A stretch of DNA of 64,000 nt from Permianibacter sp. Its GTDB lineage: Bacteria; Pseudomonadota; Gammaproteobacteria; Enterobacterales; Permianibacteraceae. Positions within the stretch are counted from its first letter, which is position 1. Every line of letters starts with the position of its first letter. The stretch is taken from the NCBI GenBank assembly GCA_046297695.1, contig JBKBHF010000013.1, forward strand, positions 12,498-76,497. Direction: 5' to 3'. Positions 5,579-50,759 of this stretch are shown here, piece after piece. The position numbers were made by a program, and so were the translations under genes. The notes under the pieces were generated by a model. The model was not told where the DNA came from, searched no databases, and saw only the letters and a list, made by a program, of their open reading frames with translations.

Positions 5579-6046
5579 GTGGCGCTGGCGTTTCAACAAT
5601 GGTCGATGGCCGAGCTGTTGCCGCACGCCGGCGACATGATTCTGCTCGACGCCGTGCTGAGCTGTGATGACGAGCAAATCGTCGTCACCGCGACGCCGCA
5701 TGCCGGCACCATTCTGGTCGATGACAAGGGCGTGTTGCCGGCCTGGACTGGCATCGAATACATGGCGCAGGCGATTGCCTGTTTCGCCGGTGTGCACGAG
5801 CGCGTGCACGGCCGGCCGCCGAAGGTCGGTTTCCTGCTCGGCACCCGCAGTTACGACAGCAAGGTGGCGGCGTTTGCGTTGAACCAGACGCTGCGGATCA
5901 GCGCAACCAAACAGTATCAGGAGGCCAACGGCCTCGGCGCGTTCCAGTGCCGCATCGAAAACGAAACCGGTATGCTGGTCGAAGCCAGCATCAACGTGTT
6001 TGAGCCGCCAGAGCTGGAAAAATATCTGGCCGGCGAGCAAAACTGA
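5579..6046 (+). CDS. Hotdog-fold 3-hydroxyacyl-ACP dehydratase (ApeP-like)
   Basis: GTG 5579 lies 7 nt after AGGAGA; ATG 5606 is an alternative. About 155 aa, ...LLPHAGDMILLD...GIEYMAQAIA... resembles FabA/FabZ-like hotdog dehydratases found between KS and KR in APE clusters. Confidence 0.65.
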   Translation: MALAFQQWSMAELLPHAGDMILLDAVLSCDDEQIVVTATPHAGTILVDDKGVLPAWTGIEYMAQAIACFAGVHERVHGRPPKVGFLLGTRSYDSKVAAFALNQTLRISATKQYQEANGLGAFQCRIENETGMLVEASINVFEPPELEKYLAGEQN

Positions 6047-6089
6047 CAGCAGCAAAATTTCACTTCATAAAACCCCGCAAGAGAAGCTA

Positions 6090-6824
6090 ATGACCAATCC
6101 CTCGCGCCGTATTCTGGTTACCGGCTCCAGCCGCGGCATCGGTCGCGCCATTGCCTTGCAACTGGCGCGCGACGGTTTTCACGTTTTGGTGCATGGCCGC
6201 GCCGACGGCGACGCGCTGCGTGCCGTCGCCAGCGAAATCGCCGCTGCCGGCGGCAGTGCCAGCGCCTTGCCGTTTGATATCAGTGATCGCGCCGCAACAC
6301 GCGCGGCCTTGGACCATGAACTGACCAGCAACGGCGCGCTGTACGGGGTCGTCTGCAATGCCGGCATCGCCCGCGATAACGCCTTTCCGGCGATGACCGA
6401 AGAGGATTGGGACGGCGTCATCCACACCAACCTCGACAGCTTCTATAACGTCGTGCAGCCGCTGGTGATGCCGATGGTGCGCGCCAAGAAGGGCGGCCGC
6501 ATCGTTACGCTGTCGTCGGTGTCCGGCATTGCCGGCAATCGCGGCCAAGTCAATTACAGTGCCGCCAAGGCCGGCATCATTGGTGCGACCAAGGCACTGG
6601 CGTTGGAATTGGCTTCGCGCAACATCACCGTCAATTGCGTTGCGCCGGGTTTGATCGACACCGAAATGCTGCACGGCGTCGAAGTCGACGAAGCGCTGAA
6701 ACTGGTGCCGGCCAAACGGCTCGGCAAACCGGAAGAAATCGCCGCCGTCGTGGCGTTCCTGTGCAGCGACAACGCTGCCTATGTCACCCGGCAAGTGATC
6801 GCCGTCAACGGAGGCATGGTATGA
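6090..6824 (+). CDS. 3-oxoacyl-ACP reductase, SDR family (FabG/ApeQ-like)
   Basis: ATG 6090. ILVTGSSRGIGRAIA (TGxxxGIG Rossmann motif), NAGI, and the catalytic S...YSAAK motif. Stop overlaps the next ATG (6821). Confidence 0.92.
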   Translation: MTNPSRRILVTGSSRGIGRAIALQLARDGFHVLVHGRADGDALRAVASEIAAAGGSASALPFDISDRAATRAALDHELTSNGALYGVVCNAGIARDNAFPAMTEEDWDGVIHTNLDSFYNVVQPLVMPMVRAKKGGRIVTLSSVSGIAGNRGQVNYSAAKAGIIGATKALALELASRNITVNCVAPGLIDTEMLHGVEVDEALKLVPAKRLGKPEEIAAVVAFLCSDNAAYVTRQVIAVNGGMV

Positions 6825-8053
6825 CGCCGAAACGTGTCGTCGTCACCGGCATGGCCGGCATCACCTCGCTCGGTTCGGACTGGGACAGCGTGGCGGCCAA
6901 TTTGCGCGCGGGTAAAAGCGGCATACGCTATATGCCGGAATGGGAACGCTTCGATGGCCTGAATACGAGGCTCGGCGGCCCGGTGACTGATTTCACCGTG
7001 CCGGAACATTATTCGCGCAAGAAAATTCGCAGTATGGGCCGCGTTGCCCTGCTGGGCACGGTCGCCACCGAACGCGCATTGAAAGATGCCGGTCTGCTCG
7101 ATGACCCGTGCATCAAAGACGGCCGCATGGGCATTTCCTATGGCGCGTCGGCCGGCAGCATGGAACCGGTCAAAGCCTTCGGTAATATGCTGAGTACTGG
7201 CTCGATGGCCGGCATCACTTCATCCAGTTACATCCAGATGATGGCGCACACTGCGCCGGTCAATATCGCAGTATTTTTTGAACTGAAAGGCCGCATCATC
7301 ACCACCAGTTCGGCCTGCACGTCCGGCTCGCAAGGCATCGGTTATGCCTACGAAGCGATCAAATATGGCAAACAGAAACTGATGGTCGCCGGTGGCGCCG
7401 AAGAACTGACCGGCGCCGAAGCGGCGGTGTTCGATACGCTGTTCGCCACCAGCACCAGGAACGACACGCCGGAACTGACGCCGCGGCCGTTCGATAGAGA
7501 GCGCGATGGTCTCGTGGTCGGTGAAGGCGCCGGCACCCTGATTCTGGAAGAGCTCGAACACGCGCAGGCGCGCGGCGCCAAGATCTACGCCGAGCTGGTC
7601 GGTTACGGTTGCAACTCCGATGGTGCCCACATCACCCAGCCGGAAGCGGAGACGATGGCCGTGGCGATGAAATGGGCGCTCGAAGACGCCAATCTGCCGC
7701 CAAGCGCAATTGGTTACGTCAATGCTCACGGTACCGCGACGGATCGCGGCGATATCGCTGAAACCGCCGCGACCGCGTCGGTGTTCGGCAACGCGATGCC
7801 GATTTCCTCGTTGAAGAGTTATTTCGGCCACACGCTTGGTGCCTGCGGCGCGCTGGAAGCCTGGCTCAGCATCGAGATGATGAATCGCGGCTGGTTCGCA
7901 CCGACCATCAATCTGGTAAACCGTGATGAGCGTTGTGCGGAATTGGATTACATAATGGGTAACGGTCGTGAGCTACAAACCGACTATCTGATGTCGAACA
8001 ATTTCGCCTTTGGTGGCATCAACACTTCGCTGATTTTCAAGCGCTGGCGCTAA
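6821..8053 (+). CDS. Beta-ketoacyl-ACP synthase II-like (ApeR-like KS)
   Basis: MTPKRVVVTGMAGITSLG; catalytic SSACTSG, NAHGTATDRGD, YFGHTLGACG; C-terminal NNFAFGGINTSLIF. Confidence 0.92.
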   Translation: MTPKRVVVTGMAGITSLGSDWDSVAANLRAGKSGIRYMPEWERFDGLNTRLGGPVTDFTVPEHYSRKKIRSMGRVALLGTVATERALKDAGLLDDPCIKDGRMGISYGASAGSMEPVKAFGNMLSTGSMAGITSSSYIQMMAHTAPVNIAVFFELKGRIITTSSACTSGSQGIGYAYEAIKYGKQKLMVAGGAEELTGAEAAVFDTLFATSTRNDTPELTPRPFDRERDGLVVGEGAGTLILEELEHAQARGAKIYAELVGYGCNSDGAHITQPEAETMAVAMKWALEDANLPPSAIGYVNAHGTATDRGDIAETAATASVFGNAMPISSLKSYFGHTLGACGALEAWLSIEMMNRGWFAPTINLVNRDERCAELDYIMGNGRELQTDYLMSNNFAFGGINTSLIFKRWR

Positions 8054-40146: not shown

Positions 40147-41904
40147 TCAAAAACTGTCTTTTATCGTCACCAGCCACTGCAGTTTGTCGAGCTCCGGATC
40201 AGCATCGGTGTTGAGCGGCGCCGCCAAATCGAGGTGCAGTACGGTTTGTTTGCCGGGTCGTTCGTTGCCGGTACGGGTTGGCGTGAGCCGCAAGCCAAAA
40301 CCGATATCGCGCAACCAACCGCCGTTGTAGCCATTGTCTTTGCCATCAAACCAGGCACGGCCGACGTCGGCAAACACCGCTGCACCGACATCGAATAGAG
40401 ACAACACTTCGGTGAACAGATAGAACCGCTCTTCCAGCGTCAGCAAGGCCATGCGATCGCCCATCTGATAACGGGTCGGGTAGCCGCGCAGTCCGTTGTC
40501 GCCACCGAGCGTGATGGGTTCATCGATAAAGAGATTGCGGCCGTGCTGGAGCTGCAACGCGGCGTAAAACTGGTGCGAGCTGAAATCACCCTGGTAGTAA
40601 CGGACGTGCAGTTCGCTGCGTTGGTCGAACACCTGGTCGTCGTCATGACGTCCGTTGATGGCAGCAGACAGGAACATGACCTTGTCATCATCGACCAGGT
40701 AATAGCGTTCTGCGGACGCTGAATAAAGCCAGGCCTCATCGGTTGAACCGATGGCGTCGTCAGCACGGCCGAAACGCAGTGTAGTCGTCCAGCCGGTATT
40801 GATATCCTCTGTGCGGCGCATCTGATTGATGTTGACCGCCTTGACGAAGCTGTCGTGCACCCGTTGCCACTCCAGCCAGCCATAACGGTAGTGTCGATCG
40901 TCCGGGAAGGGTTGCTCTGGCACCGTGTCCTCGTTGGTCCGAAACCGACTGTCTTCATCGTTTAGACCAAAGCGCCAGCGTTGGGTCTCGTGCCCGACCA
41001 AGCCGCGTGACCAGCCACCGAATACGCTGTGACTCGCTTCCTCATGCTCGAAGGATTGAATTTCCTCATCGCGAAAACTGAGGGTGTCAGTGCGCAGATT
41101 CCGATGCGTCAACACGCCACCGGCCCACGGCGTTTCCAGCGAAAAGAACGGTCGGTACAGTTCAAACGCATGGCTCTGGCCATCGTCGTTGTCGGTGTAT
41201 TCCAGATCCAGGACACTACGGGTATTGCCGAAGTTGGGGTCGCGGTAGCCGAACATGGTGCCGGTGCGCTCGGCATCCTGTTCGCGGACAATCTGCACGG
41301 CGCGACCGCTGCCGAGGAAATTGCTGTCCTTGAAACCAAACCGGGAGCTGTTGTCGCCACCACTGCGCGAGAAACCGACGTCGGGTACCAAGGTCCAGAC
41401 GTCTTTCACGCGCACTTCCAGATCGACTTTTTCCAGACATTCGCCGATCGGCCGGATGTCGGCGCCGCGCAGGTAACGGCGGGTGCGCAATACCCGCTCG
41501 GATTCAGCCACGCGGCTGACCCGGAATGGTTCACCGGTTTCAAACAGCAAGTCGTCGCGGATGACATCCGTGTCGGTTGGAATGTGCCAGTCGTTGACCA
41601 GCCGAAACAACCAGTTGTCTTCTTCCGGTTTGCTGGTGTCGAAAATCGGGTCGACCACAATCTGGATATCGCCAACCGGCAAGCCACGCGCTTCGAACCC
41701 GGCCAAAGTTGCCGGGTCGGCACCTTCCGACGGCAGGGCGAGACAGCCGTGGTCCAACAGTGGCTCTGCAGTCGTCTCTTCTGGGCTGGGTTCGGACATG
41801 GCGGGTGCCGTCACATCGGATGTGGCATCCGCGGCGTGAGCGTCCGCCATGCCAATCACAGACAGCACCGAAATGAGATAAAGGCGGGAAAACGGAAACG
41901 ACAC
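40147..41904 (-). CDS. Omp85/BamA-TamA-superfamily outer-membrane protein (POTRA + surface-antigen beta-barrel), orphan
   Basis: GTG start. Signal peptide ...LISVLSVIGMADAHA. POTRA-like segment (VGDIQIVVDPIFD...LLFETGEPFRVSRVAESERVLR...VDLEVRVKDVWTL). Long beta-rich C-terminal domain ending in aromatic ...VTIKDSF. Confidence 0.65.
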   Translation of the reverse strand: MSFPFSRLYLISVLSVIGMADAHAADATSDVTAPAMSEPSPEETTAEPLLDHGCLALPSEGADPATLAGFEARGLPVGDIQIVVDPIFDTSKPEEDNWLFRLVNDWHIPTDTDVIRDDLLFETGEPFRVSRVAESERVLRTRRYLRGADIRPIGECLEKVDLEVRVKDVWTLVPDVGFSRSGGDNSSRFGFKDSNFLGSGRAVQIVREQDAERTGTMFGYRDPNFGNTRSVLDLEYTDNDDGQSHAFELYRPFFSLETPWAGGVLTHRNLRTDTLSFRDEEIQSFEHEEASHSVFGGWSRGLVGHETQRWRFGLNDEDSRFRTNEDTVPEQPFPDDRHYRYGWLEWQRVHDSFVKAVNINQMRRTEDINTGWTTTLRFGRADDAIGSTDEAWLYSASAERYYLVDDDKVMFLSAAINGRHDDDQVFDQRSELHVRYYQGDFSSHQFYAALQLQHGRNLFIDEPITLGGDNGLRGYPTRYQMGDRMALLTLEERFYLFTEVLSLFDVGAAVFADVGRAWFDGKDNGYNGGWLRDIGFGLRLTPTRTGNERPGKQTVLHLDLAAPLNTDADPELDKLQWLVTIKDSF

Positions 41905-42063: not shown

Positions 42064-42906
42064 ATGGCTGTCAGCGATTACCATTGGCCCAACAGTGGAC
42101 CGCCGCTGTTGATGGCCATTCTCAATGTCACGCCGGACTCGTTCTCGGACGGCGGTCGTTATGCCGCGCCAGCCCTGCTGCGGCCGCGGCTGGAGCAGTT
42201 GCTGGCTGAAGGTGCTGACATCATCGACATCGGCGGCGAATCGACCCGGCCCGGGGCGGAACCGGTCAGCATCCAGCAGGAGCTGGACCGGGTCATGCCG
42301 GCGGTCGAACAGGCGCTGGCACTGGGGGCGGTGGTGTCGATCGATACGCGGCATCCGGAAGTGATGGCGGCGGCCCTGGCGGCCGGTGTGGCCATCATCA
42401 ATGACGTCAACGCGCTGCAGGCGCCTGGCGCCTTGGCGCTGATCAGTCAGTATCAGCCGGCGGTCTGTCTGATGCACATGCAGGGCGAGCCCCGCTCGAT
42501 GCAGCAGCAACCGCACTATGACGACGTGGTCAGCGAGGTGAACGCCTTCCTGGTTCAGCGTGCGTCGAGCTGCCGGCAAGCTGGCTTGCCGGCGGCAAAA
42601 ATTTGTCTGGACCCGGGATTTGGTTTCGGTAAGAGTGCCAGCCACAATTTGCAGCTGCTGTATGCCCTGCCGACGCTGGTGGCGACCGGCTATCCCGTGC
42701 TGGCGGGCTTGTCGCGAAAATCGCTGATCGGCCACGTCACCGGTGCGCCGGTGGCGGAACGGCTGGTCGGCAGCGTGGCGCTGGCCTTGCTGGCGGCGCA
42801 ACGCGGTGCCCGGGTGTTGCGGGTGCACGATGTCAAAGAAACCAAACAGGTTTTGCAGTTATGGCTGGCGATGGAAGCGCAAGGACAGCCATCCCAACAG
42901 GAGTGA
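42064..42906 (+). CDS. folP: Dihydropteroate synthase
   Basis: LLMAILNVTPDSFSDGG...DIIDIGGESTRPGA...DPGFGFGK...GLSRKS are the classic DHPS motifs. Confidence 0.95.
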   Translation: MAVSDYHWPNSGPPLLMAILNVTPDSFSDGGRYAAPALLRPRLEQLLAEGADIIDIGGESTRPGAEPVSIQQELDRVMPAVEQALALGAVVSIDTRHPEVMAAALAAGVAIINDVNALQAPGALALISQYQPAVCLMHMQGEPRSMQQQPHYDDVVSEVNAFLVQRASSCRQAGLPAAKICLDPGFGFGKSASHNLQLLYALPTLVATGYPVLAGLSRKSLIGHVTGAPVAERLVGSVALALLAAQRGARVLRVHDVKETKQVLQLWLAMEAQGQPSQQE

Positions 42907-42915
42907 AGCAGGAAG

Positions 42916-44250
42916 ATGAGCAAGCGTAAGTATTTCGGCACCGATGGCGTCCGCGGCAAAGTCGGCGAGTTTCCGATCAATCCGGAGTTCGTGATGAAGC
43001 TGGGCTGGGCCGCCGGCAAGGTGTTGGCCAACGGCAGCGGCAGCAAGGTGCTGATTGGCAAGGATACCCGGACCTCCGGTTACATGTTCGAAGCGGCGCT
43101 GGAAGCGGGTTTGTCGGCCGCCGGTGTCGAGGCGCACATGCTCGGGCCGATGCCGACGCCGGCCATCGCTTATCTGACCCGGACATTGCGCGCGCAGGCC
43201 GGCATTGTCATTTCGGCGTCGCACAATCCGTACTACGACAACGGCATCAAGTTCTTCTCGGCCGACGGCTTCAAACTGCCGGACGAGGTGGAAGCGCGCA
43301 TCGAAGCCATGCTCGACGAGCCGATGACTACCGTCGATTCGGCGCTGCTTGGCCGCGCTCGCCGGGTCAGCGAAGCGACGGGGCGCTATATCGAATTCTG
43401 CAAAGCCACCGTTGCCAGCAACCTGAGTCTGCGCGGCCTGAAGATCGTGGTCGACTGTGCCCACGGCGCGACCTACAAAGTCGCACCGGCCGTGCTCGAA
43501 GAGCTGGGCGCCGAGGTGCACACCATAGGCGCCGAACCGAATGGTCTGAACATCAACGACAAGGTCGGCGCGACCGCGCCGGGCTTGTTGGCGGAAATCG
43601 TGGTCGCGCAGGGCGCCGATGTCGGTGTCGCGCTCGATGGCGACGGCGACCGTTTGATCATGGTCGATCACAAAGGCGAAGTGGTTGACGGTGATGAGAT
43701 CCTGTTCGTGATCGCGCGCGATGCGCTGCGTCGCGGCAAATTGCCCGGTGGCGTGGTCGGCACCGTGATGAGCAATCTTGGTCTCGAGGTGGCGCTGCGC
43801 GAGCTGGGCATCGGCTTTGGCCGCGCCAAGGTCGGCGATCGTTACGTGCTGGAAATGATGCAGGAAAAAGGCTGGCTGCTCGGTGGCGAATCGTCTGGCC
43901 ACATTGTCTGCCTCGACAAAACCACGTCCGGCGACGGCATCGTTTCCGCGTTGCAGGTGCTGTCGGCGATGGTGCAGAACGGTGTCAGCCTGCACGATCT
44001 GAAACACGGCATGCAGAAATTTCCGCAAACGCTGATCAACGTGCCGCTCAAGGCCGGCAGCAAGCCGATGGAGGCCGATGCCGTCAAACAGACGGTGCGT
44101 CAGGTTGAGCAGGAATTGGGTGACTCCGGCCGCGTGCTGCTGCGGCCATCCGGCACCGAGCCGCTGATCCGAGTCATGGTGGAAGGCCGGGACGCCGCGC
44201 AGGTCAAGCGCTGCGCCGAGCAGATTGCCAGCGCCGTGCGATCGGTTTGA
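42916..44250 (+). CDS. glmM: Phosphoglucosamine mutase
   Basis: [18 protein letters not shown]...[17 protein letters not shown] (phosphoserine loop)...ALDGDGDRL...GGESSGH. Confidence 0.96.
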
Positions 44251-44271: not shown

Positions 44272-44302
44272 CAAAAAAACGCGCTGTCTGGCGCGTTTTT
44301 TT
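44272..44302. terminator. Bidirectional rho-independent terminator (glmM / GGDEF-EAL gene)
   Basis: AAAAAAACGCGC-TGTCTG-GCGCGTTTTTTT; overlaps the stop codon (44301-44303) of the convergent minus-strand gene. Confidence 0.85.
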
Positions 44303-46658
44303 ATACCCGCAAACCGGCGCCGGTTTGCTGCAGCCAGTGCAGAAATTCATCCGCCGGTACCGGCCGGCTGAAATGATAGCCCTGGCCGCGATCGCAGCCC
44401 CAGTCACGCAGTAGCACCGCTTGTTCCCGGGTTTCGATGCCTTCGGCCACCACCTGCAGATCGAGGTTGTGGCCCAGTTCAATTGTGGAGCGGACAATGG
44501 CGGCATCATCGCCGTCGGCACGCAGTTGCCGGATGAAGGCCTGATCAATCTTCAGTTCCTGCACCGGCAGTTTTTTCAGGTAGGCGAGAGAAGAATAGCC
44601 GGTACCAAAATCATCGATGGCCAGCTTGATGCCAAGCGCCCGCAACTGCTCCAGCAAGGCCATCGCTCGCTCCGGCTCTTCAATGAAGCCACTTTCAGTG
44701 ACTTCCAGACCAAGATACTCCGCCGACACGGTGCTGCGTTCGAGGCTTTCGGCGAGAAAATCGCGCAGGCTTTCGTCAAGCAGATCATGGGCGGAAATAT
44801 TGACCGCGATATGCATCCGAACGCCATGCTGCTGCCATTCGCGTGCCTGACTGAGGGCGCGGGCGATGATCCAGCGGGTTAGTCGTTTGATGTCACCGGT
44901 TTGCTCGGCAAAGGGGATGAAGTCGATAGGCGGAATGAAGCCGCGGCTTGGATGCTGCCAACGGACCAGCGCCTCACAGTAGCTGTGATCATCACCCTGC
45001 AGATTGACTTTCGGTTGGTAGAACAAGCGCAGTTCGTTTTCGGCGACCGCGCGGCGCAGATCGCCGAGTAATGACAAGTGCTCGGCGCGAAACGGTTGCA
45101 GGCTGGGATCAAACCGAACGATGTGGCGACGCTGCTGTCGACTGTAGTAGAGCGCGACATCGACTGCACGCAACAGCGCACTGGTGTGCTTGCCGTCATC
45201 CGGCGCTACCGCATAACCAAGGCTGACGCGCAGATCGACCGTTTGCCCGCCCGCGACAAACGGCAACTGCATAACACCGACCAGTTGCTCGGCCAGTGCG
45301 CGACCGGCGCGATCGCCCGCGTCCGGCAGCAGAATGGCGAATTCATCGGCGCCAACGCGGGCCAAGGTGGCGCCATTCGGCAGCTGACCGTGCAATCGCT
45401 CGCCGGCAGCGCGCAGCAACTCATCACCCAGCGCATGGCCCAGCGTGTTGTTGATCAGCTTGAACCGGTCCAGATCGAGCAACAATACGGCGCAAGGGGC
45501 TGAGTTGCCGAGCAAGCGCGTCAACTGTTCGGTGAAGTAGGTGCGATTGGGCAGCGTCGTCAACGGATCGCGATAAGCCAGATCCAGGATTTGCTGTTCA
45601 CGGCTGGCTATCGTTTCGCGCATGGTGTTGAAAGCCTGCGCCAGATCGCCAATCTCGTCCTGTCGGTTGATGACCGCATCGACCGCGTAATCGCCGGCCT
45701 CCATGCGGTGTGCGGCGGTCTGCAGCTGCTGCAACGGTCGTACGATGCCGCGCGCCAGCATGACGGTGGCAACCAACGCCAGTGCCAACGCGGCCAAGCC
45801 CAAACCAAGCAGGTAGCGTTGCAACTGACGGTGCGGCGCGAGCGCCTGCTCCAGTGAGCGCTGCAAGACCGCGATTTCGCTACCGTCTTGTCCTGCCAGC
45901 GCGACGACCAGGGTTTGATACGGTTGTTCGGTCAGCATCAGTGTGTGGATGGCATGATCCGGTCGTGGCGGCAGTTGCTGCGTCAGCGCATCAGCCAGCG
46001 CTGATGGCAGGGTCGATGCCTGCAGTCGCCAATGGCGTGCGCCATCCGCATCGTGATGCCTGCCCAAAAAAGACACTTGCAAGCCGGTCAGTTTTTGCAG
46101 GTCGGTGGCAACGGTCGCATCGATCAAGAAACCCATCGCGACCACGGCAATCGGTTGCGGTGCTCGCACCGTCACCACGACCAATTGATAAGCCTGTTCA
46201 TCAAGACTGACGATGGCACTGGCGGCGCCTTGCACACGCGCCTGTTGCAGCAACTCCGGGAAGGGAAACAAGCCACTGACCTGATCGTCGCGACTGTCAG
46301 CAAGCAGGCTGCCATCCAGGCTCGCTGCCAAGCTGATGTCGGCATTGATCCGGCCGCGATGATTCTGTAACGCAGACGTGATGGTGCTTTGATCGCGGCT
46401 GGCGATGGCTTCGCGAAAGCCGTAATCTGCCGCCAGCACTTTTGCGGCCTGTGTCAGTTGTTGCTGATTTTGTTCCAGGGCCCGGGCAAACACGGCCTGA
46501 CCCAGTTGCAGCTCTTCGCGCAGCTGATTGGTAACCAGATTGCGCTGCATTTGCGACACCAACCACAGCACGCCGACCAGCACCAGCAACAGCAGGCTGC
46601 CGTAGGTCAGTGCCAGGCGGCGGCTCAGCTGGCGACGAGGTGTCGCGCCCGTACTCAT
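44301..46658 (-). CDS. Membrane c-di-GMP signalling protein: periplasmic sensor domain-HAMP-degenerate GGDEF (GADEF)-EAL
   Basis: ATG 46658. TM1 (LALTYGSLLLLVLVGVLWLV), a ~240-aa periplasmic region, TM2, HAMP (...DEIGDLAQAFNTM...), a GGDEF domain with RVGADEFAILL, and an EAL domain with intact CEALVRW, DDFGTGYSSL, KIDQAFIR, VAEGIET, QGYHFSRP. Confidence 0.9.
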   Translation of the reverse strand: MSTGATPRRQLSRRLALTYGSLLLLVLVGVLWLVSQMQRNLVTNQLREELQLGQAVFARALEQNQQQLTQAAKVLAADYGFREAIASRDQSTITSALQNHRGRINADISLAASLDGSLLADSRDDQVSGLFPFPELLQQARVQGAASAIVSLDEQAYQLVVVTVRAPQPIAVVAMGFLIDATVATDLQKLTGLQVSFLGRHHDADGARHWRLQASTLPSALADALTQQLPPRPDHAIHTLMLTEQPYQTLVVALAGQDGSEIAVLQRSLEQALAPHRQLQRYLLGLGLAALALALVATVMLARGIVRPLQQLQTAAHRMEAGDYAVDAVINRQDEIGDLAQAFNTMRETIASREQQILDLAYRDPLTTLPNRTYFTEQLTRLLGNSAPCAVLLLDLDRFKLINNTLGHALGDELLRAAGERLHGQLPNGATLARVGADEFAILLPDAGDRAGRALAEQLVGVMQLPFVAGGQTVDLRVSLGYAVAPDDGKHTSALLRAVDVALYYSRQQRRHIVRFDPSLQPFRAEHLSLLGDLRRAVAENELRLFYQPKVNLQGDDHSYCEALVRWQHPSRGFIPPIDFIPFAEQTGDIKRLTRWIIARALSQAREWQQHGVRMHIAVNISAHDLLDESLRDFLAESLERSTVSAEYLGLEVTESGFIEEPERAMALLEQLRALGIKLAIDDFGTGYSSLAYLKKLPVQELKIDQAFIRQLRADGDDAAIVRSTIELGHNLDLQVVAEGIETREQAVLLRDWGCDRGQGYHFSRPVPADEFLHWLQQTGAGLRV

Positions 46659-46659
46659 C

Positions 46660-47295
46660 TCAATGCTGGCTCGAGGCGCTGGCCCGTGGCCGCAGGCTGA
46701 CCGGTACGCGTAGCGGCGCGGACGCATCGGTGACGGTGACGGCGAGCGCTGTGGTCGGCGCGCTCAGTTCCGGATGCCACAGCTGCAATTGATGCGGGCC
46801 CGGCGGCAGCTGCAGGACCAGTTCGCCATGACCATTGCTTTTGCCGAACCAGGGGGTATCGACCACCAGCACGTAAGCCAGCATCCAATCGTGGATGTTG
46901 CAGCCCAAGGCCACCACGCCGGCGCGGTCGAACAGCACGGGTTCGGCCGGTACGCCGCTGTAGAGCTTCAGTTCAAATTTTTTGGCATCGGAAAACGAAT
47001 AAACGTGATGCCGGATATTGTCCTTGTTCGGAAACCGGATCCGGCTGCCGACCGGCGCCACGGTCACATACGGGACGAATTCCTTGTTGATCTGATCGAT
47101 GTCGACCTGCATGCCGACCGGTTTGGCGGCGGCGGAATGCACATAGGCGACGACGTCCGGCACCGGCTTGCCGTCCGCGTCTTGCAACTGCAGGCGAAAC
47201 TCGGCCGCGCTGCCGGTCGAAGTCAACAGCAACGCCATCAACAGAGATGCAACGCGCATCGATGAGCCCATCGCCATCATCCTTTTGTCGAACAA
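46660..47295 (-). CDS. Secreted cupredoxin-like protein (family often annotated 'methylamine utilization protein')
   Basis: Signal peptide (MRVASLLMALLLTSTGSAA). FPNKDNIRHHVYSFS ... VALGCNIHDWMLAYV gives His...Cys-x2-His-x2-Met. The stop lies 1 nt from the downstream GGDEF-EAL start. The start may be an internal ATG (e.g. 47259). Confidence 0.65.
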   Translation of the reverse strand: MFDKRMMAMGSSMRVASLLMALLLTSTGSAAEFRLQLQDADGKPVPDVVAYVHSAAAKPVGMQVDIDQINKEFVPYVTVAPVGSRIRFPNKDNIRHHVYSFSDAKKFELKLYSGVPAEPVLFDRAGVVALGCNIHDWMLAYVLVVDTPWFGKSNGHGELVLQLPPGPHQLQLWHPELSAPTTALAVTVTDASAPLRVPVSLRPRASASSQH

Positions 47296-47724
47296 TCAGG
47301 GGCCGGCAGCAACCGGATCCACCACCTGCGGCTTCATCGGCGCCAGCAATGCCAAAAACTCGTTCTTTTCCCGACTGCCGACCCCGCGAGCGTCGAGAAT
47401 GGTGCGCAACTGTTCAACCAAGCCGTAGAACTCACGTTCGGTAATTTGCAGTCCGCGGTGGACCAAGCGCATATCGTCACCCGTATACGTGCAGGGACCG
47501 CCGGCCAGTACACAGAACTGTTCGGCCAGCTTCTCTTTCACCCGCTGCAGATTCACCTTGTGAAAACTGCGTTTGGTGTTGGGGTCGGTGCTGGCGACGT
47601 CGATCAGTTGATCGGTGATCGCCTGCAGGGCCGGCTGTCCGCCGAGGCGTTGATACAAGGTGTCGGCCGCCGCCAGTGGCGTGCTCAGGCACAGCAGAGG
47701 CAGCAGCAATAAAGATCGCAGCAT
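47296..47724 (-). CDS. Group-1-type truncated hemoglobin with N-terminal signal peptide
   Basis: ATG 47724 (MLRSLLLLPLLCLSTPLAAA). LYQRLGGQPALQAITDQLID...F..VNLQRVKEKLAEQFCVLAGGPCTYTGDDMRLVHRGLQITEREF matches the trHb 2-on-2 pattern, including a candidate proximal His (VHRGL). Confidence 0.75.
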   Translation of the reverse strand: MLRSLLLLPLLCLSTPLAAADTLYQRLGGQPALQAITDQLIDVASTDPNTKRSFHKVNLQRVKEKLAEQFCVLAGGPCTYTGDDMRLVHRGLQITEREFYGLVEQLRTILDARGVGSREKNEFLALLAPMKPQVVDPVAAGP

Positions 47725-47802
47725 TTTTGACAGGCCCTCCGGGGCGATTAGCATTGAGCATAGACAGTGACCACCCATAGGTCACCCTGGTTGGGGGCGG
47801 GT

Positions 47803-48669
47803 ATGAGCGGAATCAGAAGCGTTATACGAGGGTTTGGCCTGTTTGCGTTGCTCATCCAGGCTGCCTATGCCGATCCGGGGGGGCGGCTGCCGGCAACGGG
47901 CGGCGTGGTATCGGTTGATGGCAGTGGCGGTGGCGGCTTGACCAGCTGGGCGCTGATCAGCGGCTATGGCACGGCAGATGAATGGGGCGGTGCCATCAGC
48001 GTCACCCGGTTGCCGTTGCCCGATTATCAGTTCGAAAGTGCGGCACTAACCCTCGGCTTGTTCGACCGTGTCGAACTCAGCGTGGGTCGTCAGCGCTTCG
48101 ATCTGGAAGACGTGGTGCCCGGCGAACACGTCGAGCAGGACATTTTTGCCGTGAAGTGGCGCCTGGCGGGGGATGCAGTGTTTGCCCCCGATTCCTTTCT
48201 GCCGCAACTGGCGCTTGCCGTGCAGCACAAGCGCAACCGCGATTTTGACTTCATTCCAGCTGCACTTGGCGGCCAGCGTGACAGCGACAGCGAGTTTGCG
48301 CTGTTGGCCAGCAAGCTCTATTTCGCTGCGATGTTCGGCCACAACCTGCTGATCAATGCCGGCCTGCATTACAGCCGCGCCAATCAGTTTGGCTTGCTGG
48401 GCTTTGGCGGCCCCGATGATGATCGCAGGGAGTGGTTGGCGCAGGCCGCGTTGGGGGTTTTCTTGACCGATCAATTGCTGCTTGGTCTGGAATATCGACA
48501 GAAGCCCGACAATCTCGCTGTTCCAGAAGACGATGCTCACGATCTGTTTCTGGCTTGGGTGCCGAACCGGCGCTTTGCGCTGACCCTGGCCAGAGTGGAT
48601 TTGGGCCGCATCGCCGTAACCGAGGACGAGCAGGTCGGTACCTATCTGCAGGTGCAGCTCAATTATTGA
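47803..48669 (+). CDS. DUF3034-like secreted/outer-membrane beta-rich protein
   Basis: ATG 47803. Signal peptide (GFGLFALLIQAAYA), Gly-rich GSGGGGLTSWALISGYG, alternating beta-strand-like sequence, C-terminal aromatic (VQLNY). Family name recalled from memory, not searched. Confidence 0.55.
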   Translation: MSGIRSVIRGFGLFALLIQAAYADPGGRLPATGGVVSVDGSGGGGLTSWALISGYGTADEWGGAISVTRLPLPDYQFESAALTLGLFDRVELSVGRQRFDLEDVVPGEHVEQDIFAVKWRLAGDAVFAPDSFLPQLALAVQHKRNRDFDFIPAALGGQRDSDSEFALLASKLYFAAMFGHNLLINAGLHYSRANQFGLLGFGGPDDDRREWLAQAALGVFLTDQLLLGLEYRQKPDNLAVPEDDAHDLFLAWVPNRRFALTLARVDLGRIAVTEDEQVGTYLQVQLNY

Positions 48670-48777: not shown

Positions 48778-49539
48778 ATGACCTCGTCGCGCCCGCGTAT
48801 CGTTGCCGGTAACTGGAAAATGCACGGTTCGCGCGAGCTGGTTCGGGCCTTGGTTCCCGCCGTGCAGCAGGCACTGCCGGCCACGGGCCGCTGCCAGGTC
48901 GTGTTCTGTCCGCCGGCGGTGTACCTGGCCGAGGTGGCTGGCATGTTGAGTCACCCACGCTGTGCGGTCGGGGCTCAGGATGTCAGTGCCCATGCCAGCG
49001 GTGCCTATACCGGTGAACTGGCCGGGTCGATGCTGAAAGAGCTGGCTTGCCAGTTCAGCATCGTCGGGCATTCGGAGCGGCGCCGTTACCACGGCGAAAG
49101 CAGCGAGCTGGTTGCCGCCAAAGCGGCAGCAGCACTGGCTGCAGGATTACGGCCGATCATCTGCATCGGCGAAACCCTGGCCGAACGCGAAAGCGAGCGG
49201 ACTTGGGCCGTGCTGGAGCAGCAGCTGTCGGCGATTGCCGGGCTGCTCCGGCAGCAACGGGCCGGCGAGATTGTGCTGGCCTACGAACCGGTCTGGGCCA
49301 TTGGCAGCGGCCGGACCGCGACGCCGGAACAGGCGCAGGCGGTACACGGGCAGGTGCGGACCTGGCTGAAACAGCAGGCGCCGGCCTTGGCCGAGCAGCT
49401 GCCGATTCTGTACGGCGGCAGTGTGAAAGCGGATAACGCGGCGGCGCTGATGGCGCAGCCGGATGTGGACGGAGCCCTGGTCGGGGGCGCCTCCTTGCAG
49501 GCAGATGAGTTCATCGCCATCTGCCGCAGCGCCGGGTAG
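48778..49539 (+). CDS. tpiA: Triosephosphate isomerase
   Basis: RIVAGNWKMHG...VGHSERR...ICIGE...YEPVWAIGSG...YGGSV are the canonical TIM motifs. Confidence 0.95.
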   Translation: MTSSRPRIVAGNWKMHGSRELVRALVPAVQQALPATGRCQVVFCPPAVYLAEVAGMLSHPRCAVGAQDVSAHASGAYTGELAGSMLKELACQFSIVGHSERRRYHGESSELVAAKAAAALAAGLRPIICIGETLAERESERTWAVLEQQLSAIAGLLRQQRAGEIVLAYEPVWAIGSGRTATPEQAQAVHGQVRTWLKQQAPALAEQLPILYGGSVKADNAAALMAQPDVDGALVGGASLQADEFIAICRSAG

Positions 49540-49568
49540 GCGCTGATAAAAAGTCGGAAAAGACTGAC

Positions 49569-49994
49569 ATGTACGAGATTTTGCTGGGTCTGTTTCTGGT
49601 CATCGCGCTGGCGCTGATCGGCATCATCCTGCTGCAACAGGGCAAGGGCGCCGATCTGGGCGCGTCGTTCGGTGCCGGTGCCTCGAACACCGTGTTCGGT
49701 GCTGCCGGTTCGGGCAACTTCCTGACCAAGGCGACCTGGTGGTTGGCCCTGGTATCGCTGGTGATTCTGTTGGTGCTGGGTTACATGGCCAGCCACCGCG
49801 ATAAAGCGGCGACGGCAACCGATGACGTGTTTGCCGAGCTGCCGGCAGATGCTCCGGTCACCGAAGTACCGGCTGCCGAAGCCGTACCGGCCAGCGATGT
49901 CCCGGCCGCGACTGAAGCGGCGCCGGTCAATAGCGACGTGCCGGCCGCGCCGGCCGCAACCGAACAGCCGGCCAGTGATGCGCCGAAGCCGTAA
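49569..49994 (+). CDS. secG: Preprotein translocase subunit SecG (with Ala/Pro-rich C-terminal tail)
   Basis: MYEILLGLFLVIALALIGIILLQQGKGADLGASFGAGASNTVFGAAGSGNFLTK is canonical SecG; tpiA-secG-tRNA-Leu synteny. Confidence 0.93.
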   Translation: MYEILLGLFLVIALALIGIILLQQGKGADLGASFGAGASNTVFGAAGSGNFLTKATWWLALVSLVILLVLGYMASHRDKAATATDDVFAELPADAPVTEVPAAEAVPASDVPAATEAAPVNSDVPAAPAATEQPASDAPKP

Positions 49995-50026
49995 GGCAGC
50001 TTGAGGTCGGCTGACCTGCACAATTT

Positions 50027-50111
50027 GCGGAAGTGGTGAAATTGGTAGACACACCATCTTGAGGGGGTGGCGCCGCAAGGCATGAGGGTTCAAGTCCCTC
50101 CTTCCGCACCA
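50027..50111 (+). tRNA. tRNA-Leu (anticodon GAG), class II with long variable arm
   Basis: 85 nt: GCGGAAG acceptor / CTTCCGC-A 3' end (a genomic CA follows the discriminator, so the annotated end covers ACCA with only one C of a CCA tail), D-arm GTG..CAC, anticodon stem CCATC/GGTGG with loop TTGAGGG (GAG), T-arm GAGGG-TTCAAGT-CCCTC. Equivalent position to E. coli leuU after secG. Confidence 0.92.
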
Positions 50112-50145
50112 ATTCACCGGTCGGGTTCTCCGGCCGGTCAGAACG

Positions 50146-50183
50146 GAAAATGGCATCGGACCGCAAGGCGATGCCATTTTTTC
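50146..50183 (+). terminator. Rho-independent terminator after tRNA-Leu
   Basis: AAAATGGCATCG-GACCGCAAGG-CGATGCCATTTTTT. Confidence 0.8.
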
Positions 50184-50390
50184 TGCCCGCACCTGCCTCG
50201 GGCATGCGGGAAAAAACGCTGTCCGGCGCAGGCCGGCAGTACGAAGGAGGTGGCTCCACGCTGGCACTGACGTTGCGCTCGGTCAGAAAAAGCCGGTGGG
50301 AAGCTGCTAAAATCTCGTGGTTTTTTGTCCCGCCACGTTTGTGCGTGCCGCCGATGGGGTTTCAGGCAGGCGGCGCGCAGGGTGAACAAC

Positions 50391-50759
50391 ATGCTGCAGA
50401 ACTACACTCCCATCCTCGTGTTCATGGGGGTCGGGCTCGGCCTTGGCACCGTTCTGGTCGCCCTCGGTTGGTTGCTCGGCTACCTGTTCGGTCGGCACAA
50501 GCCGGACGCGGCCAAGAATGCACCGTTCGAATGCGGCTATGACGCGTTCGAAGATGCCCGCATGAAGTTCGACGTGCGTTTCTATCTGGTTGCCATCCTG
50601 TTCATCATTTTCGATCTCGAGATCGCCTTCCTGTTCCCGTGGGCGGTGGTCATCAACGAGATTGGCTGGTTCGGCTTCTGGGCCATGGCGGCCTTCCTGG
50701 GTCTGCTGGTCGTCGGTTTCATTTACGAATGGAAGAAAGGCGCGCTCGAGTGGGAGTAA
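50391..50759 (+). CDS. nuoA: NADH-quinone oxidoreductase subunit A
   Basis: [19 protein letters not shown]...[40 protein letters not shown]. Confidence 0.93.

Follow-up and report, generated by a model that had tools for sequence, protein, structure and literature searches.

A Conserved Gene Neighbourhood Joins a Cupredoxin, an Exported Truncated Haemoglobin and a DUF3034 Barrel to a Predicted c-di-GMP Phosphodiesterase in Permianibacter

The stretch of Permianibacter sp. DNA analysed in this work (64,000 nucleotides; hereafter, the window) harbors, at positions 44301-48669, four genes coding for a predicted inner-membrane sensor phosphodiesterase of cyclic dimeric GMP (c-di-GMP), a periplasmic cupredoxin, an exported truncated haemoglobin and a DUF3034 outer-membrane barrel; their open reading frames (ORFs) are present at the coordinates first noted, which are reported in Table 1. 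The same arrangement recurs in dozens of genomes and therefore is not due to chance; it is very likely that the four genes work together. We give about even odds (a probability of roughly 0.5) to the more specific reading that they form one envelope-spanning module setting c-di-GMP hydrolysis according to a periplasmic redox/gas signal, with the cupredoxin as co-receptor, and we are less confident than that about the specific gas that the module would sense. The sequence-only reading that this analysis followed up had proposed that the globin and the cupredoxin may be the ligand-sensing partners of the periplasmic domain of the phosphodiesterase.

Results

Conservation of the Neighbourhood

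Eighty loci, one genome per species, were retrieved by means of cupredoxin peptide patterns alone (the patterns, GCNIHD[WNS]M among them, retrieved at least 600 genomic stretches), and their six-frame ORFs were scored against the domains of the window. A dCache_3-HAMP sensor lies directly downstream of the cupredoxin gene, on the same strand, in 72 of the 80 loci, and elsewhere within the locus in three more (75/80 in total). The loci belong to Pseudomonadota, Verrucomicrobiota, Myxococcota, Nitrospinota, Nitrospirota, Desulfuromonadaceae and other taxa. The output of the sensors is mostly GGDEF-EAL; ten sensors with a different output were scanned with Pfam, and nine of them carry a class III nucleotide cyclase (Guanylate_cyc), the tenth (in locus L030) being a histidine kinase that does not adjoin the cupredoxin. 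Systems of this kind are typically recognised by an input module that stays the same while the outputs are exchanged, and the pattern speaks for the co-receptor reading of the cupredoxin.

DUF3034 and the globin occur together in 32 of the 80 loci, and in all 32 they are adjacent to each other and accompanied by a GGDEF-EAL sensor; in one further locus the globin was seen without DUF3034. The four-gene set was found in beta- and gammaproteobacteria, in two different gene orders: DUF3034 divergent from globin-cupredoxin-sensor (Permianibacter, Methylophilaceae, Niveibacterium and Steroidobacteraceae), or cupredoxin-sensor-DUF3034-globin on one strand (many Pseudomonas, Stutzerimonas, Cellvibrio, Herbaspirillum and Dyella). 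Searches starting from DUF3034 homologues or from globin homologues recover the same set. Its flanks vary (metG/apbC, dnaK/tatD, ahpC/LysR, dnaA/yidC, mutS), and these unrelated chromosomal contexts suggest that it moves as a cassette.

The sequence-only reading had staked its proposal beforehand on the conservation of this neighbourhood, which turned out to be strong both for the cupredoxin-sensor pair and for the whole set. Since the neighbourhood and also the signal peptides (see below) are conserved, the functional link between the four genes and the extracytoplasmic location proposed in that reading are well supported. The roles given there to the two metalloproteins are upheld in part only: the cupredoxin is the general partner of the sensor, whereas the globin behaves as an accessory that, apart from the single locus just mentioned, comes only with DUF3034 and a GGDEF-EAL enzyme.

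Many of the remaining loci harbor, in place of DUF3034 and the globin, an alternative family of outer-membrane barrels, here called OMP-X (~290 residues, weak match to PF13505 (OMP_b-brl), aromatic C-terminal residue), whose gene typically lies directly upstream of the cupredoxin one (27/80 survey loci and 30/86 of all the loci fetched). Over these 86 loci, DUF3034 is present in 35, OMP-X in 30 and neither of them in 21, and the two families were never found together. OMP-X loci (for example L004, L005/L006, L011, L012, L018, L022, L042, L047 and L062) include every system with a cyclase output. No homology between DUF3034 and OMP-X was detected, iterated profiles giving no common matches. The idea of a universal third partner in the outer membrane was considered and ruled out, because 21 loci have neither barrel; the cupredoxin-sensor pair alone is universal.

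Some other gene associations were observed in the survey. A secreted DUF4394 protein adjoins the cupredoxin-sensor pair in some Comamonadaceae-type loci (L016, positions 6064-6963; L070, 6015-6938; L053, L058 and L050), with an E value of ~1e-70 in the two that were scanned (L016 and L070); an outer-membrane barrel was not detected in these loci, and a few of the 21 barrel-less loci have DUF4394 or unclassified ORFs. In two gammaproteobacterial metagenome-assembled genomes (L018, 2539-6017, and L055, 3970-5919) OMP-X and the cupredoxin are present and the sensor is absent; upstream of the pair lies a gene for an NDH-2-like flavoprotein (Pyr_redox_2 + NDH2_C), preceded further upstream, in L018 only, by one for a rhodanese/VTT-domain protein. 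Lastly, a second dCache_3-HAMP-GGDEF(-EAL) paralogue lacking a cupredoxin of its own stands beside the module in L088/L089 (6846-8498, minus strand), L015 (126-2585) and L067 (2612-5071), and it is possible that in such genomes one cupredoxin may serve two sensors.

The Cupredoxin

The cupredoxin ORF has no Pfam or NCBIfam family match, and its assignment relies on a structural model and on its putative metal ligands. The AlphaFold2 (AF2) model, built from 26 diverse homologues, has a predicted local distance difference test score (pLDDT) of 88, and its top 40+ Foldseek matches in the PDB are pseudoazurin and amicyanin (E ~1e-5 to 1e-4), plastocyanin and related cupredoxins; a weak sequence match to the cupredoxin 5fc9 was also found. 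H96, C132, H135 and M138, the last three in a C-x2-H-x2-M loop, are invariant in the 26 homologues. Judging from model and residues, the protein is a type-1 copper fold with the full His/Cys/His/Met ligand set, as had been read from the sequence alone, and copper binding and redox activity are predicted.

Both the N- and the C-terminal strands give a faint CarboxypepD_reg match in many homologues, which suggests the presence of an added immunoglobulin (Ig)-like module. Seven stretches of a 3178-residue protein (P0361) match positions 120-200 of the cupredoxin profile, that is, the C-terminal Ig-like part. This part is therefore a repeatable module also found outside the family, and family counts at weak E values (8,707 at 1e-10) are inflated. 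The cupredoxin family is nonetheless large, with more than 7,400 homologues in a database clustered at 90%; clustering at 50% identity leaves 1,734 clusters for which E <= 1e-30. In their sources these homologues are named "methylamine utilization protein" or "plastocyanin".

The Membrane Sensor

Hydropathy, computed from the ATG at 46658, places the two transmembrane helices of the sensor at residues 16-34 (TM1) and 283-301 (TM2), with a loop of ~248 residues between them; the periplasmic domain described in the sequence-only reading (~240 residues, followed by HAMP-GGDEF-EAL) is thus found at almost the same length, and the Pfam domains agree with it. The catalytic motifs of the EAL domain are complete (EAL, N, ExxE, DDFGTGYSS, KID, EGxE and QGY) and are nearly invariant among 59 homologous sensors. 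The GGDEF domain, on the contrary, does not conform to the cyclase signature GG[DE]EF, having GADEF in the window and often degenerate versions (e.g., IADEF, IGDEF, FADEF) in the same 59 sensors, and a regulatory role is more probable for it than cyclase activity. With intact EAL motifs and a degenerate GGDEF, the expected output is the hydrolysis of c-di-GMP.

The residues conserved in the dCache_3 domain are D78, F81, T92, S95, R103, P167 and F177. No conserved His, Cys or Met was found in this domain among the homologous sensors, so that it has no obvious metal site of its own, which fits the dependence on a partner protein; the domain is presumed to offer the docking surface for the cupredoxin. 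The comparison with NCBIfam gave only sub-threshold equivalogs for the sensor (such as DibA, DosP and HmsP), which is therefore not the orthologue of a named enzyme, and no family for the globin, the cupredoxin or DUF3034. A search of the four proteins for an H-NOX or NosP (FIST) haem domain gave no Pfam or NCBIfam match.

The Exported Globin

The globin matches PF01152 with an E value of 6.7e-15 (55.8 bits, cut-off 21), and its best relatives of known structure are the group 1 (N) truncated haemoglobins (HbN) of Shewanella benthica and Mycobacterium tuberculosis, with E values of 4e-16 to 2e-13 and a gap-free alignment; the 2-on-2 globin identity assigned from the sequence alone is in agreement with both. 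H89 corresponds to the proximal F8 His and is kept in 35/35 module globins. All residues of the distal pocket are apolar (B10 I41, E7 V62, E11 L66 and G8 L102, with Phe at CD1), the variants among module globins being L/I/V at B10, L/V/F at E7, L/V at E11 and L/M at G8; E10 is Lys in 21 of the 35 relatives. Hydrophobic residues at B10/E7/E11/G8 define the TrHbN-2 subgroup, whereas TrHbN-1 has a Tyr/Gln network (PMC11904497). On the basis of these residues, the protein is a group N truncated haemoglobin of subgroup TrHbN-2, for which haem b binding is predicted.

Signal peptides were judged heuristically from their n-, h- and c-regions and cleavage sites. By this measure the globin, the cupredoxin and the DUF3034 protein each have an N-terminal signal peptide with an AxA-type end; that of the globin is MLRSLLLLPLLCLSTPLAAA, the mature protein starting with DTLYQ. 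A hydrophobic leader is present in all 35 distinct module globins, with an AxA site in some and a lipobox in others: in Pseudomonas, Methylophilaceae and others it ends in the lipobox L-x-x-C, followed usually by Ala or Ser and not by Asp. Over the 120 best database homologues of the globin (down to ~40% identity), a hydrophobic N-terminal extension was found in 113 and a lipobox in 27. The cleavable-looking signal peptides pointed out earlier for the globin and the cupredoxin are thus kept in every orthologue, with a lipobox in many of the globins. An exported globin had also been considered unusual; export itself is borne out, whereas the singularity is not, given the leader in 113 of 120 homologues.

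Two Cys residues, C71 and C78 (C-x6-C), are invariant in 35/35 module globins, and the pattern C-x3-GG-x-C is present in 117 of the 120 best homologues; the second Cys is missing in the two HbN proteins compared, those of S. benthica and M. tuberculosis, which are cytoplasmic. Such a conserved pair would be expected to form a disulfide, as in a periplasmic protein. A covalently bound, c-type haem was ruled out, as the globin has no CXXCH and its Cys pair is of the C-x6-C type. Export through the twin-arginine translocation (Tat) pathway was ruled out as well, because the leaders lack a twin-arginine motif; it follows that export should proceed by the Sec or the lipoprotein pathway, with the haem inserted in the periplasm. 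Haem insertion in the periplasm does occur with E. coli cytochrome b562.

An exported globin of the same clade, with signal peptide and Cys pair, stands alone in Mesorhizobium delmotii (L090, positions 6001-6432), where neither a cupredoxin nor DUF3034 nor the sensor is encoded near it; a dCache_1-HAMP-cyclase gene lies ~3 kb off.

The DUF3034 Barrel

The AF2 model of the DUF3034 protein (pLDDT 80) has 12 strands and, according to Foldseek, resembles the FapF, OmpG, KdgM and NanC barrels. Its signal peptide ends with AYA before DPGG, and its C-terminal residue is aromatic (...QVQLNY). If the model is correct, the protein is a 12-strand barrel of the outer membrane and the system would span the envelope. 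A Gly-rich segment, (A)TGGV..(E)G.GGGGL..WAL(I).GYGT.DE, encoded at 47869-47980 and corresponding to mature residues 23-60, is nearly invariant across DUF3034 proteins; AF2 leaves it unplaced, with very low confidence, and its role may be to plug the barrel or to bind a partner. Iron oxidation of the Cyc2/rusticyanin type was also considered for the barrel and ruled out, because DUF3034 has no Cys and hence no haem motif.

Organization of the Locus and Chromosomal Setting

The three minus-strand genes had been described as packed with spacings of 0-1 nucleotides. This holds between the cupredoxin stop and the sensor ATG, which are 1 nucleotide apart. The value of 0 between globin and cupredoxin referred to the maximal cupredoxin ORF, of 211 residues and starting with TTG at 47295, and probably does not hold: close homologues are 203 residues long and begin at the residue matching the ATG at 47271, which has AAGGA upstream. 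For these reasons the start is probably this ATG, leaving a 24-nucleotide spacer after the globin stop. The DUF3034 gene, in turn, is divergent from the globin one as previously noted, and the gap of 78 nucleotides from ATG to ATG is confirmed.

Table 1. Features of the four-gene set and of its flanks in the window (positions are those of the window)
Feature	Position	Strand	Basis or remark
Inner-membrane sensor phosphodiesterase (predicted), 785 residues	44301-46658	-	TM1-dCache_3-TM2-HAMP-GGDEF-EAL; ORF reaches 46727
Periplasmic dCache_3, residues 35-282	45813-46556	-	PF14827, E 4.5e-12, 46.5 bits (cut-off 25.7), and hydropathy
HAMP	45609-45758	-	PF00672, E 6.2e-16
GGDEF, degenerate signature GADEF	45126-45578	-	PF00990, E 4.9e-36
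EAL phosphodiesterase domain	44361-45062	-	PF00563, E 1.5e-75
Periplasmic two-domain type-1 (blue) copper cupredoxin, 203 residues	46660-47271	-	Model and ligands; copper binding predicted
Group-N (TrHbN-2-like) truncated haemoglobin, 142-residue precursor	47296-47724	-	Pfam PF01152 Bac_globin
Divergent intergenic region, 78 nucleotides	47725-47802	.	Globin ATG 47724 to DUF3034 ATG 47803
Sigma-70-like site TTGACA-16-TAGCAT	47727-47754	+	Points at DUF3034; consensus match only
DUF3034 12-strand outer-membrane beta-barrel (modelled), 288 residues	47803-48669	+	PF11231, E 5e-86, 288.8 bits
folP-glmM	42064-44250	+	Housekeeping genes, one flank
tpiA-secG-tRNA-Leu-nuoA	from 48778 (run noted 48778-50759)	+	Housekeeping genes, other flank
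tRNA-Leu(GAG)	50027-50111		Between secG and nuoA

For each of the four proteins, the nearest relatives belong to Permianibacter (73-94% identity). In this genus the set splits the otherwise contiguous folP-glmM-tpiA-secG cluster between glmM and tpiA, and Permianibacter fluminis shares this insertion. On the minus strand beyond folP, at 40147-41904, there is a 585-residue ORF with a signal-like leader and the C terminus ...TIKDSF; a Pfam search gave no match at E <= 1e-5, and a gene of comparable size (594 residues) that occupies the equivalent place in P. fluminis (L001, 13619-15403) likewise has no Pfam match. The ORF may code for an uncharacterised outer-membrane protein.

Discussion

A Possible Mechanism

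According to the reading that we favor, the cupredoxin would be a periplasmic redox co-sensor, or co-receptor, of the phosphodiesterase: its Cu(I) or Cu(II) state (or, less likely, its metallation state) would alter its binding to dCache_3, and the resulting change would pass via HAMP and switch the activity of the EAL domain. The globin would add a gas input as a gas-reactive haem site, and electron exchange between haem and copper might write the availability of the gas into the redox state of the cupredoxin. The globin itself would be soluble in this organism and lipid-tethered to the outer membrane in Pseudomonas and others, working beside the DUF3034 barrel, which may anchor it at the outer membrane or give access to the ligand or to haem. 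The net output would be a change of c-di-GMP, leading to changes in biofilm and motility behavior. As for the ligand, NO-selective H-NOX proteins offer an analogy, on the basis of which the apolar distal pocket should disfavor stable O2 binding and favor nitric oxide (NO) or carbon monoxide (CO), or else give a low O2 affinity.

There are, however, several points that weigh against this reading. Type-1 copper proteins are classically electron carriers and not sensors, and the NDH-2-like neighbours of a few cupredoxin genes hint at an additional role of the cupredoxin in a redox chain; moreover, no sensor was detectable near the cupredoxin in 5 of the 80 loci, L018 and L055 being two of these five. 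Exported globins of the same clade that stand alone, such as that of M. delmotii, imply a function of the globin independent of the sensor. A Sec-exported globin with haem b would, in addition, need the insertion of haem in the periplasm, which is unproven for this family. Finally, we infer partner binding, the loading of metal and haem, and the nature of the signal from gene context and sequence.

Other Explanations of the Neighbourhood

In another reading, the module would be mainly a periplasmic redox or detoxification pathway: the globin would work as an NO dioxygenase, peroxidase or oxidase and receive its electrons from the cupredoxin, the barrel would be the channel for the substrate, and the phosphodiesterase would simply be co-transcribed and sense something else through its dCache_3 domain. 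Cupredoxins are indeed electron carriers, TrHbN proteins are established as detoxifying NO with the help of a reductase, solitary exported globins exist in Mesorhizobium, and the few cupredoxin loci with an NDH-2-like gene in place of the sensor agree with such a pathway. A reaction with peroxide has been reported for the S. benthica TrHbN-2 (PMC11904497). We nevertheless consider this pathway unlikely, since a dCache_3 sensor accompanies the cupredoxin in 75/80 loci, even where neither a globin nor an enzyme gene is present, and since the output of the sensor varies; pairing without the globin and with varying outputs is hard to explain unless the cupredoxin is part of the signal input.

If the cupredoxin is part of the input, it might still report the availability of copper rather than a redox state. 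Its apo or holo form would then signal periplasmic copper, the barrels (DUF3034 or OMP-X) would admit the metal, and the sensor would adjust c-di-GMP or a cyclic nucleotide monophosphate (cNMP) in response to copper stress. The invariant copper ligands, the outer-membrane barrel present in most loci (DUF3034 in 32/80 and OMP-X in 27/80) and the lack of a metal site in dCache_3 itself are all in agreement with this idea, but type-1 sites generally bind copper very tightly and are atypical as exchangeable sensing sites, while CusS and CopS, which are known to sense copper, use Met/His sites within the sensor itself. As the strict co-occurrence with a haem globin would also be left unexplained, copper sensing appears to us quite unlikely.

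Still another possibility would relieve the cupredoxin of any informational role: the dCache_3 domain would bind a small ligand directly, with the cupredoxin as a structural or accessory protein for folding, stability or localisation. Cache domains often bind small ligands (review PMC8846402), and the conserved D78, T92, S95 and R103 could line a pocket. The full set of redox-copper ligands is, however, invariant across thousands of homologues, which argues for a metal centre that is functionally and not merely structurally required, and makes this explanation improbable. A fortuitous adjacency of unlinked or mis-called genes is effectively refuted by the survey, in which many genera have the same set, in two orders and with unrelated surroundings, and three of its four genes lead to it independently.

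Significance

The co-receptor reading might be extended well beyond the window. We advance, as a tentative and on the whole rather doubtful generalization, that there is a widespread, hitherto undescribed class of envelope signalling in which a periplasmic blue-copper protein is the redox co-receptor of dCache_3 sensors with c-di-GMP, cNMP or kinase outputs in many phyla; a beta/gammaproteobacterial subclass, with an exported and often lipidated globin docked at a 12-strand barrel, would represent the first extracytoplasmic globin sensor of a gas (NO/O2), and would use electron transfer from haem to copper as the signalling step.

To our knowledge, the inputs of most c-di-GMP enzymes are unknown. 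The recurrence of the four genes in many bacteria suggests an undescribed system sensing a gas or the redox state outside the cytoplasm. If this is true, it would provide a directly testable case of periplasmic gas/redox sensing via two metalloproteins of well-understood chemistry, in carriers that can be cultivated (Pseudomonas, of the syringae and other groups, Methylophilus, Herbaspirillum, Cellvibrio and Permianibacter). DUF3034, the "methylamine utilization protein"/"plastocyanin" family (with at least 1,700 clusters when grouped at 50% identity) and a clade of exported truncated haemoglobins would each gain a function, and one would have to ask how a globin exported by Sec acquires its haem b.

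Comparison with Known Systems

Among the known systems, NspS-MbaA of Vibrio cholerae is alike in that a periplasmic partner, encoded beside an inner-membrane GGDEF-EAL protein with a periplasmic domain, relays a signal to it; NspS, however, is a PotD-like solute-binding protein for polyamines, whereas the window encodes a type-1 copper protein, a haem globin and a barrel. The YfiBNR/TpbB system of Pseudomonas and E. coli likewise combines an outer-membrane part, a redox-sensitive periplasmic regulator and an inner-membrane c-di-GMP enzyme with HAMP, but there the lipoprotein YfiB is OmpA-like, the regulator YfiR is no metalloprotein and the enzyme YfiN is a cyclase, whereas the enzyme described here is a predicted phosphodiesterase and the families are unrelated.

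The likeness to H-NOX and NosP, stand-alone haemoproteins encoded beside a GGDEF/EAL enzyme, is a functional resemblance only, which includes an apolar pocket expected to disfavor O2. Those proteins are cytoplasmic, have other folds and act directly on the enzyme or on a kinase; the module has an exported 2-on-2 globin tied genetically to a barrel, and a cupredoxin between globin and sensor. The globin-coupled sensors and DosP/DosC (DgcO/PdeO) share with the proposed module a haem-based control of c-di-GMP turnover by gases (PMC8846402), but they are cytoplasmic, and their haem domains, of the 3-on-3 protoglobin or PAS type, are part of the same polypeptide as the enzyme. Indeed, every haem sensor known in the c-di-GMP network is cytoplasmic according to the same review. 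In this census of the sensory inputs of c-di-GMP, from 2022, copper, cupredoxins and truncated haemoglobins are not mentioned as partners.

Among single components, the best solved relative of the globin is the TrHbN-2 of S. benthica (PDB 7tt9, 8tls and 8ugz; E 4e-16), which shares the F8 His, the apolar B10/E7/E11/G8 residues and the Cys at E16. It differs in that the crystallised form has 116 residues, with no signal peptide mentioned in the paper and the second Cys absent; at CD1 and B13 it carries Tyr and His, the globin of the window Phe and Ala. Amicyanin and pseudoazurin have the cupredoxin fold, and amicyanin also the His...Cys-x2-His-x2-Met spacing; identity is only ~20%, and the protein of the window adds an Ig-like (CarboxypepD_reg-like) module and has a sensor as partner, not a dehydrogenase or a nitrite reductase. 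Cable bacteria have globin/cytochrome fusions in which a 2-on-2 globin domain, predicted to be periplasmic, is joined to a redox partner (PMC11976967); that partner consists of pentahaem cytochromes and the globin is a proposed oxidase, whereas the globin of the window is a small protein of its own, encoded in a signalling operon. The globins discussed in a genomics paper on Fe oxidisers are unrelated.

A functional description of DUF3034, of the cupredoxin family or of the combination seen in the module was not found in the full-text literature, a coverage that leaves out most subscription journals. Taken as a whole, the module shares no component family with NspS-MbaA, YfiBNR, H-NOX, NosP, DosP or the globin-coupled sensors. 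The general principle, that is, periplasmic sensing that depends on an accessory protein, is a known one; in this module the components have yet to be described, and a large family stands behind it.

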